Part shown: one piece after another, positions 5,433-55,049 of the stretch
How positions within the stretch are numbered: position 1 is the first letter of the stretch
Layout: each line of letters opens with the position of its first letter
Source: Escherichia coli
Lineage (GTDB): Bacteria; Pseudomonadota; Gammaproteobacteria; Enterobacterales; Enterobacteriaceae
Assembly: GCF_003334305.1 (NCBI RefSeq)
Contig: NZ_QOWS01000008.1
Strand: one strand, 5' to 3'
Length of the DNA stretch: 64,000 bases
Notes under the pieces: generated by a model
Told to the model about the DNA's origin: nothing
What the model saw: only the letters and a program-made list of their open reading frames with translations
Databases searched by the model: none
Translations under genes and position numbers: made by a program

Positions 5433-7406
5433 TCATCTCTGGAACACACACAATCCGTGTGCAGGTCCCTGCCAGACAGCCGTAATCACTGGGTTATCCT
5501 CTCCAGCGAATGGGGGAATGGCGTGCCACTCCCCAGCAGGTAAAACAATCTCTGTTACCTCAAGCGTGGCGTTAATTGCGATCAAAAAGCGATCCGAGAG
5601 CAGAATTTGCAGCTGTTTCGGCCCGTTTTGCCACTCATCCGTGCTTAAAGGTTGAGCATATCGATTTAGCCAACGGACATTGCCGTCGCCTTCTTCCCAC
5701 CAGCGATTCTCCACCAAAGCGGGAATGCGCTTGCGCAGATGGATTAACGCGGCGGTAAATGCGGTTAAACCACTGCTTGCCTGCGACCAGTCCAACCAGG
5801 TTAATTGGTTATCCTGACAGTAGGCATTGTTATTGCCATGCTGGCTGTGACCATGTTCGTCACCGGCCAGTAACATCGGCGTACCCTGGGAGAGCAACAA
5901 CGTTGTTAACAGGGCGTGAATGCTGTCGCGCCGCCGTTCAACCAGGTCAAGAGAACCGCCTAACCCTTCTTTACCATGATTGTTACTGTAATTGTTGTTG
6001 GTCCCGTCGCGATTTTCTTCTCCGTTTGCTTCATTGTGTTTATGGTTGAAGCAAACGCAGTCGCGAAGCGTAAAACCGTCATGCGCGGTGACGAGATTAA
6101 TCGCGGCACTCGGCAGACGACCATTACGTTTAAAAACATCGCTGGAGGCAGCAAAACGCCCGGCAAACGCCCCCAGAGGCAAATCATAATGTAGCCAGAA
6201 ACGACGGGCAGCATCGCGGAAATGATCGTTCCACTCGGCAAACAGCGGCGGGAAATTTCCCACCTGATAACCACCAGGAGCGATATCCCACGGTTCAGCA
6301 ATTAACTTCACCTGCGAGAGCACCGGGCAGTTCTGGATAGCGGTAAACAACGGCGCATCCTGACGGAACTCTGGCGTACGGCCCATGACTGCCGCCAGAT
6401 CAAAGCGGAAACCATCGACGTGGCAGGTTTCTACCCAATAACGCAGGCAGGCGCTGGCATAATCCACCACCGCCGGATGACTCAAATTGAGCGTGTTGCC
6501 GCAACCGGTCCAGTTGTGATAATCGCCGTCTTCTCTTATCCAATAATAGCTACGGTTATCGATCCCACGCAGCGAGAATAACGGGCCGTCGAGGTCCAGT
6601 TCCGCACTATGGTTGAGCACGATATCAAGAATGACTTCGATACCCGCTTTATGCAGTGCTTTGATTGCATCGCGAAACTCATCCAGCGCCGTTTCTGGCG
6701 AGCAGGCATACGCCGGATGCAGCGCAAACATCGCCACCGGGTTGTAACCCCAGTAGTTACTTAGCCCCATGCGTTGCAGACGTGGTTCACTGGCAAACTG
6801 CGCCACTGGCAGCAGTTCCAGCGCGGTAATGCCCAATTGTTTCAAATAGTTGATCATCACCGGATGCCCGAGGGCTTTATAAGTGCCACGGATCTCGACC
6901 GGGATCTGCGGGTGCAAGTACGTTAATCCTTTGACATGGGCTTCATAAATGATGGTGCTGCCCCACGGCGTGCGCGGCGGGGCATCATCTTCCCAGTCAT
7001 AGTGATCAACCACCACTACGCATTTCGGCGCAATGGCGGCGTTGTCGCGATAGTCAGGTTCATTATGACCGGCGTGCAGCAGCGGGTTATCTTTAAACTC
7101 CCCGTCAATTTGCCGCGCGCAAGGATCAATCAACAACTTCGCCGGGTTAAAGCGATGCCCCTCGGCGGGTTGCCAGGGGCCATGAACGCGATAACCATAA
7201 CGCAAACCCGGGCGCGCATCCGGCAGATAACCGTGCCAAATGTCGCCACTGTGCCCTGGCAAGTCATAGCGATGTTCCTGGCCATTGGCGTCAAAGACAC
7301 ACAGTTCTACCCGCTCGGCATGAGCGGAGAAAAGTGTGAAGTTGACGCCCTGACCGTCGTAATGCGCGCCGAGGGGAGCGGGTTTGCCAATGGCGAGTTG
7401 TGTCAT
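5433..7406 (-). CDS. glgX: glycogen debranching enzyme
   Basis: 657-aa [44 protein letters not shown]13 family motifs; start ATG overlaps glgB stop (ATGA). Confidence 0.96.
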
Positions 7407-47173: not shown

Positions 47174-48223
47174 ATGGAAACCCCTCAACCCGATAAAACG
47201 GGCATGCACATTCTGCTCAAGCTGGCCTCGCTGGTAGTGATCCTCGCGGGCATTCACGCAGCGGCAGATATCATTGTGCAGCTGTTACTGGCGCTGTTTT
47301 TTGCCATCGTCCTCAACCCGCTCGTCACCTGGTTTATTCGTCGGGGAGTACAACGCCCCGTTGCCATTACGATTGTAGTGGTGGTGATGCTGATCGCACT
47401 AACCGCGCTGGTCGGCGTACTGGCGGCATCGTTTAACGAATTTATCTCTATGCTGCCGAAGTTTAATAAGGAGCTGACGCGCAAACTTTTTAAATTGCAG
47501 GAGATGTTGCCTTTTCTTAATTTGCATATGTCGCCGGAGCGAATGCTGCAGCGGATGGACTCGGAAAAAGTGGTTACCTTCACCACAGCGCTAATGACCG
47601 GGCTTTCCGGGGCAATGGCGAGCGTGCTTTTGCTGGTGATGACCGTAGTTTTTATGCTGTTTGAAGTGCGCCACGTCCCTTACAAAATGCGTTTTGCGCT
47701 GAATAATCCACAGATTCACATCGCGGGATTACACCGCGCACTTAAAGGCGTTTCGCACTATCTTGCATTGAAGACGCTACTCAGTTTATGGACAGGTGTC
47801 ATCGTCTGGCTGGGGCTGGAGCTGATGGGGGTACAGTTTGCGCTGATGTGGGCAGTACTGGCGTTTTTGCTTAACTACGTGCCCAATATCGGCGCGGTAA
47901 TTTCCGCCGTACCGCCAATGATTCAGGTGCTGCTGTTTAATGGTATTTACGAATGTATTCTGGTCGGCGCATTGTTTTTAGTTGTCCATATGGTCATCGG
48001 CAATATTTTAGAGCCACGGATGATGGGCCATCGCCTGGGGATGTCCACCATGGTGGTATTTCTTTCATTGTTAATCTGGGGATGGCTGCTCGGCCCGGTA
48101 GGGATGCTACTTTCGGTGCCATTAACCAGCGTGTGTAAAATCTGGATGGAAACGACGAAAGGTGGCAGCAAACTGGCGATTTTACTGGGGCCGGGCAGAC
48201 CGAAAAGTCGGTTACCGGGATGA
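47174..48223 (+). CDS. yhhT: AI-2E / PerM-family membrane transporter
   Basis: Recognised protein starts METPQPDKTGMHILLKLASLVVILAG at ATG 47174 (349 aa). Confidence 0.9.
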   Translation: METPQPDKTGMHILLKLASLVVILAGIHAAADIIVQLLLALFFAIVLNPLVTWFIRRGVQRPVAITIVVVVMLIALTALVGVLAASFNEFISMLPKFNKELTRKLFKLQEMLPFLNLHMSPERMLQRMDSEKVVTFTTALMTGLSGAMASVLLLVMTVVFMLFEVRHVPYKMRFALNNPQIHIAGLHRALKGVSHYLALKTLLSLWTGVIVWLGLELMGVQFALMWAVLAFLLNYVPNIGAVISAVPPMIQVLLFNGIYECILVGALFLVVHMVIGNILEPRMMGHRLGMSTMVVFLSLLIWGWLLGPVGMLLSVPLTSVCKIWMETTKGGSKLAILLGPGRPKSRLPG

Positions 48224-48277
48224 GGCGACAAGTGATACGATACGCACTTTCATTTTCCATTAAACGTTGGCCCTGAT

Positions 48278-48865
48278 ATGTATCGGATAGTTCTGGGGAA
48301 AGTTTCGACCTTAAGCGCAGCTCCACTGCCACCGGGTTTACGCGAGCAAGCACCGCAAGGTCCACGACGCGAACGCTGGCTGGCGGGGCGTGCATTGCTT
48401 TCGCACACGCTTTCCCCGCTACCGGAGATCATCTATGGCGAACAAGGCAAACCTGCATTCGCGCCGGAAACGCCGCTATGGTTCAACTTAAGCCATAGCG
48501 GTGACGATATCGCTCTGCTGTTGAGTGATGAAGGCGAAGTCGGCTGCGATATCGAAGTGATTCGCCCGCGCGCCAACTGGCGCTGGCTGGCGAACGCCGT
48601 ATTCAGCCTCGGGGAACACGCTGAGATGGACGCCGTGCATCCTGATCAGCAACTGGAAATGTTCTGGCGCATCTGGACGCGCAAAGAAGCCATCGTTAAA
48701 CAGCGTGGCGGCAGCGCCTGGCAAATCGTCAGCGTAGACAGCACCTATCACTCCTCGCTGTCAGTCAGCCATTGTCAGCTTGAAAATTTAAGCCTGGCGA
48801 TCTGCACCCCCACCCCCTTTACGCTCACCGCCGACAGTGTGCAATGGATCGATTCAGTTAACTGA
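48278..48865 (+). CDS. acpT: 4'-phosphopantetheinyl transferase
   Basis: 195-aa ORF MYRIVLGKVSTLSAAPLPPGLREQAPQGPRRERWLAGRALLSH; FNLSHSGD and W..KEA motifs. Confidence 0.92.
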   Translation: MYRIVLGKVSTLSAAPLPPGLREQAPQGPRRERWLAGRALLSHTLSPLPEIIYGEQGKPAFAPETPLWFNLSHSGDDIALLLSDEGEVGCDIEVIRPRANWRWLANAVFSLGEHAEMDAVHPDQQLEMFWRIWTRKEAIVKQRGGSAWQIVSVDSTYHSSLSVSHCQLENLSLAICTPTPFTLTADSVQWIDSVN

Positions 48866-48910
48866 TCCGCCCACCCGACTGCCCATCTATTGATCCAGAA
48901 CAGGTAATCA

Positions 48911-48938
48911 GTATGACGAATACTTAAAATCGTCATAC
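48911..48938 (+). promoter_or_regulatory. NikR operator in nikA promoter
   Basis: GTATGA-N16-TCATAC dyad (GTATGACGAATACTTAAAATCGTCATAC) 38 nt upstream of nikA start. Confidence 0.8.
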
Positions 48939-48975
48939 TTATTTCCGCCATCTATTTTAATCCATTGGGGTTACC

Positions 48976-50550
48976 ATGCTCTCCACACTCCGCCGCACTC
49001 TATTTGCGCTGCTGGCTTGTGCGTCTTTTATCGTCCATGCCGCTGCACCAGATGAAATCACCACCGCCTGGCCGGTGAATGTCGGGCCACTAAACCCGCA
49101 CCTTTACACGCCTAACCAGATGTTCGCCCAGAGCATGGTTTATGAACCATTGGTGAAATATCAGGCAGACGGTTCGGTGATCCCGTGGCTGGCAAAAAGC
49201 TGGACTCATTCAGAAGATGGTAAAACCTGGACCTTCACCCTGCGTGATGACGTGAAATTCTCCAACGGTGAACCGTTCGATGCCGAGGCGGCGGCAGAAA
49301 ACTTCCGCGCAGTGCTCGATAACCGTCAACGTCACGCCTGGCTGGAGCTGGCAAACCAGATTGTTGATGTTAAAGCACTCAGTAAAACAGAGCTGCAAAT
49401 TACCCTGAAAAGCGCCTACTATCCTTTCCTGCAAGAACTGGCCCTGCCCCGTCCTTTCCGTTTTATCGCTCCCTCGCAGTTTAAAAACCATGAAACCATG
49501 AACGGAATTAAAGCGCCGATTGGCACCGGACCGTGGATTTTGCAGGAATCGAAACTGAATCAGTACGATGTCTTCGTCCGTAACGAAAACTACTGGGGCG
49601 AAAAGCCGGCGATTAAGAAGATCACTTTTAACGTCATCCCGGACCCGACTACCCGCGCGGTGGCGTTTGAAACTGGCGATATCGACCTGCTGTACGGAAA
49701 CGAAGGGTTATTACCGCTCGATACCTTCGCCCGCTTTAGCCAGAACCCGGCTTACCACACCCAACTGTCACAGCCGATCGAAACCGTGATGCTGGCACTC
49801 AATACCGCCAAAGCCCCCACCAACGAGCTGGCAGTACGGGAAGCTCTTAATTACGCGGTGAACAAAAAATCGCTGATTGATAACGCGTTGTATGGCACCC
49901 AGCAGGTCGCCGACACCCTGTTTGCCCCTTCTGTGCCCTACGCCAACCTCGGCCTGAAACCGCGCCAGTACGATCCGCAGAAAGCGAAAGCGTTGCTGGA
50001 AAAAGCCGGTTGGACGCTGCCTGCGGGCAAAGACATCCGCGAGAAAAATGGTCAGCCGCTGCGCATTGAACTGTCGTTCATCGGCACCGATGCGTTAAGC
50101 AAATCGATGGCGGAAATCATTCAGGCTGATATGCGCCAGATTGGCGCAGATGTCTCGCTGATTGGCGAAGAAGAGAGCAGTATCTATGCTCGTCAGCGCG
50201 ACGGTCGTTTTGGCATGATTTTCCACCGCACCTGGGGCGCGCCATACGATCCACACGCCTTCCTCAGTTCAATGCGCGTACCGTCACACGCTGACTTCCA
50301 GGCACAGCAAGGATTAGCCGACAAACCGCTGATTGATAAAGAGATCGGCGAAGTGCTGGCGACCCATGACGAAACGCAACGTCAGGCGCTGTATCGCGAC
50401 ATTCTGACCCGTCTGCATGACGAGGCGGTTTATCTGCCTATCAGCTACATCTCGATGATGGTGGTATCAAAACCGGAGCTGGGTAATATCCCCTACGCGC
50501 CGATCGCCACCGAAATTCCGTTCGAACAGATTAAACCGGTGAAACCTTAA
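48976..50550 (+). CDS. nikA: nickel ABC transporter periplasmic binding protein
   Basis: 524-aa ORF with signal peptide [27 protein letters not shown]. Confidence 0.96.
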
Positions 50551-51490
50551 TGTTGCGTTACGTATTACGCCGCTTTCTGCTGCTGATCCCGATGGTGCTC
50601 GCCGCCTCGGTGATCATTTTTCTGATGCTGCGCCTCGGTACCGGCGACCCGGCGCTCGATTATTTGCGTCTGTCTAACCTGCCGCCGACGCCGGAGATGC
50701 TGGCCTCTACCCGCACCATGCTGGGACTGGATCAGCCGCTGTACGTCCAGTACGGCACCTGGTTGTGGAAGGCGCTGCATCTTGACTTTGGTATCTCATT
50801 CGCCAGCCAACGCCCGGTACTGGACGATATGCTGAACTTCCTGCCCGCCACGCTGGAACTTGCAGGTGCGGCGCTGGTATTAATTCTGCTCACTTCCGTA
50901 CCGCTCGGTATCTGGGCGGCGCGCCACCGCGACCGTCTGCCGGATTTCGCCGTGCGCTTTATCGCGTTTCTTGGCGTGTCGATGCCTAACTTCTGGCTGG
51001 CGTTTTTACTGGTGATGGCGTTTTCGGTGTATCTGCAATGGCTACCCGCGATGGGTTACGGCGGCTGGCAGCACATCATTTTGCCTGCGGTTTCCATTGC
51101 CTTTATGTCGCTGGCGATTAACGCGCGTTTACTGCGCGCCAGTATGCTGGACGTCGCCGGTCAGCGTCACGTCACCTGGGCGCGTCTGCGCGGCCTGAAC
51201 GACAAACAGACCGAACGTCGCCACATCCTGCGCAATGCCTCGCTGCCGATGATCACCGCCGTGGGGATGCACATCGGCGAACTGATCGGCGGGACGATGA
51301 TTATCGAAAACATCTTTGCCTGGCCGGGCGTCGGGCGCTATGCGGTGTCGGCGATTTTTAACCGTGACTATCCGGTGATCCAGTGCTTTACGCTGATGAT
51401 GGTGGTGGTTTTTGTGGTCTGTAATTTGATTGTCGATTTGCTCAACGCCGCGCTGGACCCGCGCATTCGTCGTCATGAAGGAGCGCACGC

Positions 51491-51494
<4 letters not shown>
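50550..51494 (+). CDS. nikB: nickel ABC transporter permease
   Basis: 314-aa membrane [32 protein letters not shown]. Confidence 0.96.
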
Positions 51495-54298
<2,804 letters not shown>

Positions 54299-54329
54299 GT
54301 TATTTCTGAAACGAGGAAAGAAAAGATAT

Positions 54330-54362
54330 TAACTGAACTTAATTTATAAAATTAAGTTCAGT
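54330..54362. terminator. perfect 33-bp palindrome (15-bp stem, 3-nt loop), bidirectional terminator candidate between nikR and the hicB-like gene
   Basis: AACTGAACTTAATTT-ATA-AAATTAAGTTCAGTT read directly from sequence. Confidence 0.55.
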
Positions 54363-54417
54363 TGCATAGATAGATCCTGTAAAGGCAGATATTCTGCGTA
54401 ATGTACGCCGCTAAAAT

Positions 54418-54777
54418 TTATAAATGATTCAAACGCTCATTCAGTGTTTCAATAATATAGGTATTAACAGAGACTTGTTGCTGCGCAGCCGCATTATTAA
54501 GGCGTTCACTCAGCGATTCTGGATAGCGTAACGTAAAGGTCTTAATCTTTTCTGTACGCGCATACGGCTCAATACCCGCAGCTTTACAATCCTCAAGATA
54601 CTCTCGCAGGGAAAGTTCCCCTTCTTTTTGCAGCCCCTGAATGCTGTCAGAGACAAAATCACAATAACCTGACAAGCCCAGGAATTTGCCACGAAATGCA
54701 TTCAGTTCTGGCACGTAAGTGATAACTGCAGGTTGCCCGGCAATCTCCATAGAGTTTGGCGTCTTCAGTTTGATCAT
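54418..54777 (-). CDS. HicB-family antitoxin candidate with C-terminal ribbon-helix-helix DNA-binding tail
   Basis: 119-aa ORF; RHH-like C-terminus TFTLRYPESLSERLNNAAAQQQVSVNTYIIETLNERL; 4-nt ATGA overlap with upstream HicA-like ORF. Confidence 0.6.
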   Translation of the reverse strand: MIKLKTPNSMEIAGQPAVITYVPELNAFRGKFLGLSGYCDFVSDSIQGLQKEGELSLREYLEDCKAAGIEPYARTEKIKTFTLRYPESLSERLNNAAAQQQVSVNTYIIETLNERLNHL

Positions 54778-55049
54778 GGTTTTACCCCTATACTTAGTAA
54801 CCAGTCACGCACGCTTTCTACAGCGCCTTTATCGGTATCTGGCGACGGATGAGGCCGATGGAAACACGCAACGCTCATATTTAGTATGAACTTACAACGC
54901 GAACCTCTTCCTTCCTTAATTTCTCCGCCTAATGCTTTAACCAGTGACTCTATATCAGACCACTTGATCCCTTGAGGAACAGGAGTTTTAAATATTTGAT
55001 CCAATGTATTTTTTTGTTTCTTCCGTAAAGCCTGTACCTTGGTTCTCAT
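54774..55049 (-). CDS. HicA-family (YcfA-like) mRNA-interferase toxin candidate
   Basis: 91-aa basic ORF MRTKVQALRKKQKNTLDQIFKTPVPQGIKWSDIESLVKALGGEIKEGRGSRCKFILNMSVACFHRPHPSPDTDKGAVESVRDWLLSIGVKP with the conserved His-Pro core; toxin-first order typical of hicAB. Confidence 0.6.
   Translation of the reverse strand: MRTKVQALRKKQKNTLDQIFKTPVPQGIKWSDIESLVKALGGEIKEGRGSRCKFILNMSVACFHRPHPSPDTDKGAVESVRDWLLSIGVKP

Follow-up and report, generated by a model that had tools for sequence, protein, structure and literature searches.

The NikR operator of the Escherichia coli K-12 nikA promoter was reportedly described by Chivers and Sauer in 2000, and the structure of the NikR-operator complex deposited as PDB 2HZV is said to be the work of Schreiter et al. 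in 2006. Ni(II)-loaded NikR of E. coli binds with nanomolar affinity to the palindromic sequence GTATGA-N16-TCATAC in the nikABCDE promoter, and in the crystal complex of NikR with its operator (2HZV) antiparallel beta-strands of the tetramer's two ribbon-helix-helix domains fill the major groove at each half-site (PMC7055735; PMC4486848). The half-sites are located within an imperfect 16-6-16 inverted repeat (PMC4486848). For enterobacteria in general, the NikR signal has been given as GTATGAT-N13/14-ATCATAC (Rodionov et al., cited in PMC545781). The nikABCDE genes were furthermore found to be directly activated by FNR, with a single ChIP peak at position 3,611,605 of the MG1655 genome and a site at -40.5 (Myers et al., 2013; PMC3688515).

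The window, i.e., the whole 64-kb stretch of E. coli DNA that was analysed, contains the sequence GTATGACGAATACTTAAAATCGTCATAC, an exact 28-bp GTATGA-N16-TCATAC dyad that ends 37 nt before the ATG of nikA (Table 1). This dyad is interpreted as the NikR operator within an FNR-dependent promoter of nikABCDE(-nikR), with an estimated probability of about 97%. A preliminary description of the same DNA had reported an exact match to the NikR recognition dyad just upstream of nikA, between 48905 and 48975, and both the sequence and the location proved correct. The motif scan that had been suggested there retrieved a single exact match in the 64 kb, whereas the chance expectation for 12 specified bases is about 0.004 per 64 kb and the exact dyad was absent from all of 100 dinucleotide-preserving shuffles. 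The next-best matches in the window have two mismatches, and a relaxed scan permitting up to three mismatches returned 21 matches versus 18.3 +/- 3.8 expected, so that no second NikR site was detected in the 64 kb. Perfect inverted repetition extends beyond the GTATGA/TCATAC hexamers noted at first, to 9-nt arms (GTATGACGA and TCGTCATAC) separated by a 10-nt spacer, and this perfect repeat is part of an extended imperfect repeat with 17-nt arms, which corresponds to the published imperfect 16-6-16 repeat. Comparison with the published NikR operator, also proposed in the preliminary description, revealed the same sequence (PMC7055735, PMC4486848, PMC545781). For the identical sequence of K-12, the literature reports that NikR binding depends on Ni(II) and that repression in vivo depends on nickel (PMC7055735, PMC4486848, PMC8487243). 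The operator is an already known and fully described textbook NikR site.

Table 1. Features of the nik locus in the window (coordinates refer to the 64-kb stretch; "." marks features without strand assignment).
Feature	Coordinates	Strand	Basis
FNR-type box TTGATccagAACAG (putative)	48890..48903	+	8/10 matches to TTGAT-N4-ATCAA, centre 48896.5
Extended imperfect inverted repeat holding the operator	48903-48919 / 48930-48946	.	17-nt arms, 88% complementary, 10 nt between (repeat search)
NikR operator core	48911..48938	.	Exact, unique in the window; conserved; published as operator
Left half-site GTATGA	48911..48916	+	Mean pairwise identity 0.96, 70 distinct promoters
-10-like hexamer TAAAAT	48925..48930	+	TAnAAT conserved at fixed position; -10 function suggested by conservation and spacing
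Right half-site TCATAC (GTATGA on - strand)	48933..48938	+	Mean pairwise identity 0.95, 70 distinct promoters
Probable nikA transcription start, inside right half-site	48937..48938	+	FNR centre 48896.5 plus published -40.5; ~7 nt after -10
Shine-Dalgarno-like GGGG	48967..48970	+	5 nt before nikA ATG, read from sequence
nikA, periplasmic nickel-binding protein	48976..50550	+	TIGR02294, 840.6 bits vs cut-off 393
nikB, permease	50550..51494	+	NF007677, 643 bits
nikC, permease	51491..52324	+	NF007738, 537 bits
nikD, ATPase	52324..53088	+	TIGR02770, 351 bits
nikE, ATPase	53085..53891	+	NF007739, 511 bits
nikR, Ni(II)-responsive ribbon-helix-helix repressor	53897..54298	+	NF002815 and TIGR02793

The genes downstream of the dyad were identified by NCBIfam equivalog models, with all scores far above the curated cut-offs. 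The six open reading frames nikABCDE-nikR are located on the + strand and overlap or nearly abut each other, and the NikR sequence matched over its full length (E = 2e-85) the E. coli NikR chain common to PDB 1q5v, 2hza, 2hzv, and 3od2. The operon identity that the preliminary description regarded as confirmed by the dyad is thus correct, but it is established by the protein families and not by the dyad itself. On the 5' side nikA is preceded by yhhT and acpT, the latter with its stop at 48865. The region 48200-49600 was found in all 5426 complete RefSeq E. coli genomes, where it is annotated as yhhT / acpT / nikA. Over the 44 bp at 48903-48946, 5155 of these 5426 genomes, including K-12 MG1655, match at 100% identity and the remaining 271 at 95-99%. 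In the three variant strains that were sampled (CFSAN018748, E1, and KTa008), differences occur at 48882 (C>T), 48889 (A>T), 48906 (A>T), and 48920 (A>G), and no changes were seen in the hexamers or in the TAAAAT -10 of these three strains. Of these positions, 48920 falls within the GAAT that is conserved in the extended left arm.

As had been stated initially, nikR occupies the distal end of the cluster, being the last gene and following nikE on the same strand after a gap of 5 nt; the same arrangement, with nikR after nikE, was observed in 57 of 80 related loci (see below). A scan of 53500-54500 detected no terminator-like site in the nikE-nikR gap and no consensus promoter candidate on the + strand just 5' of nikR. 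Since nikR follows nikE so closely and no terminator-like site separates the two genes, transcripts running on from the nikA promoter would bring a portion of nikR expression under the control of NikR. According to De Pina et al. in 1999, nikR reportedly also has its own weak constitutive promoter, in which case autoregulation would be only partial. The autoregulatory logic proposed in the preliminary description is therefore retained in a weakened form: the gene order agrees with it, and partial negative autoregulation of nikR is plausible, but full autoregulation would not be expected if the weak promoter exists.

Directly downstream of nikR, a pair of hicA/hicB-type toxin-antitoxin genes was observed on the - strand (54418-55049; open reading frames 54774-55049 and 54418-54777). 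Strain 503025 carries rhsB-yhhH-ISEc1 in place of this pair, as does K-12. The segment 54250-58250 is covered to at least 80% in one piece in only 2074 of the 5426 complete E. coli genomes; a variable junction adjoins the nik operon. According to a block comparison, the window is collinear with NZ_CP025892.1 only for about 28-54.3 kb. Between the convergent ends of nikR and hicB, a perfect palindrome with 15-nt arms (AACTGAACTTAATTT-ATA-AAATTAAGTTCAGTT) occupies 54331-54363 and was classified by the scan as terminator-like on the - strand.

Conservation beyond E. coli was assessed by a NikA-anchored scan using one genome per species, which yielded 80 loci (numbered with the prefix L below) with a total length of 1.04 Mb. 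The set comprises loci from Escherichia, Citrobacter, Klebsiella, Raoultella, Enterobacter, Kosakonia, Kluyvera, Edwardsiella, Atlantibacter, and other genera, and also includes several alpha-proteobacteria, a Halomonas, a Desulfovibrio, and two Bacillota. In these 1.04 Mb, 75 dyads with at most one mismatch were found, exactly one per locus and all of them upstream of nikA; none was detected elsewhere in the 80 loci. One additional locus (L024) has a dyad with two mismatches, and a one-mismatch site with a spacer of 15 instead of 16 nt was found in Stappia (L071). Accordingly, the spacer is N16 in 76 and N15 in one of the 77 loci whose best site has up to two mismatches. For most sites, the distance from the end of the dyad to the start codon is 19-41 nt. 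A lack of the dyad in orthologous nikA promoters would have refuted the initial reading; however, 76 of the 80 loci carry it upstream of nikA with up to two mismatches, and this outcome supports the reading. It is missing only from L077, L078, and L080, which contain the most distant NikA homologs (49-51% identity) and in which nikR was not found nearby either; L077 is the Desulfovibrio locus, where no GTATGA dyad precedes the NikA homolog. The N-terminal strand of NikR, QR[VI]T[ILV]T, is kept in every nikR found beside a dyad, and the related loci also share the N-terminus of the NikR encoded in the window.

In four alpha-proteobacterial loci (L067, L068, L069, and L072) nikR is divergent from nikA and the dyad is located in the shared intergenic region. 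A -35-like element, TTGAC, takes the place of an FNR box upstream of the alpha-proteobacterial dyads, and these four loci thus combine the same operator with a different promoter wiring. A further variation was observed in Enterobacter, Lelliottia, Pluralibacter, and related genomes, where ten distinct sequences (L014, L015, L016, L020, L025, L038, L047, L052, L056, and L059) have an asymmetric site with the right half-site TCACAC and a retained left GTATGA.

A gap-free comparison of 70 distinct enterobacterial nikA promoters, anchored on the dyad, revealed four conserved blocks: TTGATCC (48890-48896) with an additional conserved CA (48901-48902), GTATGAyGAAT (48911-48921), TAnAAT (48925-48930) inside the dyad spacer, and TCrTCATACT (48930-48939). 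The mean pairwise identity of TAnAAT is 0.93 and thus close to that of the two hexamers (Table 1), whereas the flanks (from 29 to 84 nt before and from 1 to 28 nt after the dyad) show identities of 0.27-0.33, which is the random level. In over 70 species, what has been kept is confined to the half-sites of the repressor, the -10 embedded between them, and the box of the activator, in an intergenic region of otherwise random-level identity. In all 70 distinct promoters TTGATCC occurs without change at the same distance from the dyad; it belongs to an FNR-type box 8 nt upstream of the operator, which is the putative activator site in an anaerobic promoter of class II. If the centre of this box corresponds to the published position -40.5, transcription would start at about 48937, at the distance of 7 nt from TAAAAT that a -10 would be expected to have, and the operator would then span approximately -27 to +1 and cover both the -10 and the start site. 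The spacing between TAAAAT and the FNR-type box agrees with a class II promoter. A sigma-70 consensus scan of 48700-49100 detected no promoter and no recognisable -35, and the assignment of TAAAAT as -10 element is thus derived entirely from conservation and spacing. Class II activator-dependent promoters usually have no recognisable -35. The blank scan fits an activator-dependent promoter and gives no positive support for it.

Other interpretations of the conserved block were considered. The inverted repeat could form an RNA hairpin and act as intrinsic terminator of acpT, instead of or besides being a protein binding site. Indeed, the + strand RNA of 48895-48955 folds at -16.6 kcal/mol with a z-score of -6.1, and the stem of the hairpin is followed by UUAUUU. 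However, such folding is expected of any palindrome, the terminator scan of 48700-49100 called nothing, the loop being 10 nt long and the stem AT-rich, and the arms are conserved in their sequence instead of their pairing: the observed changes break base pairs (A/C at pair 3-26 in 10 sequences and C/T at pair 6-23 in 5), and compensatory double changes were found at no pair among the 70 distinct promoters. Moreover, acpT is located upstream in only 8 of the 76 dyad-bearing loci, and in the alpha-proteobacteria the dyad lies between the divergent nikR and nikA, where there is nothing to terminate. A terminator function is consequently regarded as very unlikely, and this candidate was rejected owing to the missing covariation and the inconsistent presence of acpT upstream.

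The conserved TAnAAT inside the spacer could also indicate that the block mainly represents the core promoter (-10 and discriminator) together with the site of another regulator such as NarL, NikR binding being incidental. NarL has been reported to regulate (repress) nikA, but a NarL site at nikA has neither been identified in that literature (PMC2718512) nor could one be assigned here. Conservation is highest in the two symmetric hexamers and not only in the -10, and the alpha-proteobacteria and Halomonas keep the dyad in another promoter context, with the TTGAC -35-like element, along with the same NikR recognition strand. As the published biochemistry also assigns the sequence to NikR (PMC7055735, PMC4486848), a merely incidental role of NikR is extremely improbable. 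Finally, short palindromes are common, and the intergenic DNA is AT-rich, so that a functionless chance palindrome might be considered; but with no match in 100 shuffles, the same location in 76 of 80 orthologous promoters between flanks of random-level identity, and no other site with up to one mismatch in 1.04 Mb, the likelihood of this explanation is practically nil, and it is refuted by the conservation data.

The interpretation as NikR operator is compatible with a simple mode of control, for which Ni-dependent NikR binding, the NikR-DNA crystal complex, and FNR occupancy at -40.5 are taken from the literature. At a sufficient intracellular level of Ni(II), the NikR tetramer, encoded 5 kb downstream by the last gene of the cluster, would bind the DNA by inserting its two ribbon-helix-helix domains into the major grooves of the GTATGA half-sites, which are two helical turns apart. 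Because the operator overlaps the -10 and the probable start site, directly downstream of the FNR box, bound NikR would be expected to exclude RNA polymerase, and repression would thus occur by promoter occlusion. Synthesis of the nickel importer would be shut off whenever nickel is sufficient, FNR would restrict nikA expression to anaerobiosis, and read-through from the nikA promoter into nikR would also be repressed, leading to a partial negative autoregulation. The site would thereby function as a control point that joins nickel status (via NikR) and anaerobiosis (via FNR) to nickel import for [NiFe]-hydrogenase synthesis. The window itself gives no hint of anything other than the textbook operator, and the importance of the result lies in the correct annotation and not in new biology.

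Two Escherichia loci carry insertions, presumably of mobile repeats, between the operator and nikA. In Escherichia sp. E1V33 (L001, 5532-5950), the intact operator is directly followed by an insert of about 430 bp, built from tandem units of roughly 98 bp that contain GC-rich palindromes, so that operator and promoter have been moved about 470 bp from nikA; after the insert, the region of the right half-site is present a second time in degenerate form, AATCGTCGCCATACTTATTTCGCC. In Escherichia sp. MOD1-EC7003 (L003, about 5880-5990) the operator is unchanged, and a 112-bp insertion is present between it and the nikA Shine-Dalgarno sequence, in the presumed 5' leader. Judging from the ERIC/IRU consensus (AAGTAAGTGACTGAGGTG...), this insertion is a putative ERIC/IRU-like repeat. 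Each of the two insertions gives nikA a longer and restructured 5' leader and leaves the NikR/FNR control module untouched. The idea that they add post-transcriptional control or uncouple nickel repression is highly speculative and considered improbable.

Compared to the nikA operator of K-12, the site in the window shows no difference: the 44 bp, the half-sites, the 16-bp spacing, the position before nikA, and the repressor protein are the same, and the strain differs only elsewhere, e.g., by the hicAB pair instead of rhsB after nikR. The consensus derived from the 70 distinct promoters, GTATGAyGAAT-N6-AwTCrTCATAC, represents the same signal as that of Rodionov et al., although positions 7 and 22 are C and G in E. 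coli, whereas most genera have T with G or A. Class II FNR-activated promoters, such as those of dmsA, narG, and yfiD, carry their FNR site at -40.5 or -41.5. The nikA promoter resembles them in its TTGAT-N4-ATCAA-like box, which would be placed at -40.5, and in the absence of a recognisable -35, but differs in the degenerate right half of the box (AACAG) and in the overlap of the core promoter with the operator of a metal repressor. NikR of H. pylori is pleiotropic and binds without a clear consensus, unlike the situation at the E. coli operator (PMC545781; PMC4486848). Delta-proteobacterial NikR sites (GTGTTAC-N13/14-GTAACAC) have half-sites whose sequence is unlike the GTATGA of E. coli, but the operators of both the delta-proteobacteria and H. 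pylori share the architecture found here, with half-sites about two helical turns apart that are recognised by a tetrameric ribbon-helix-helix repressor (PMC545781).
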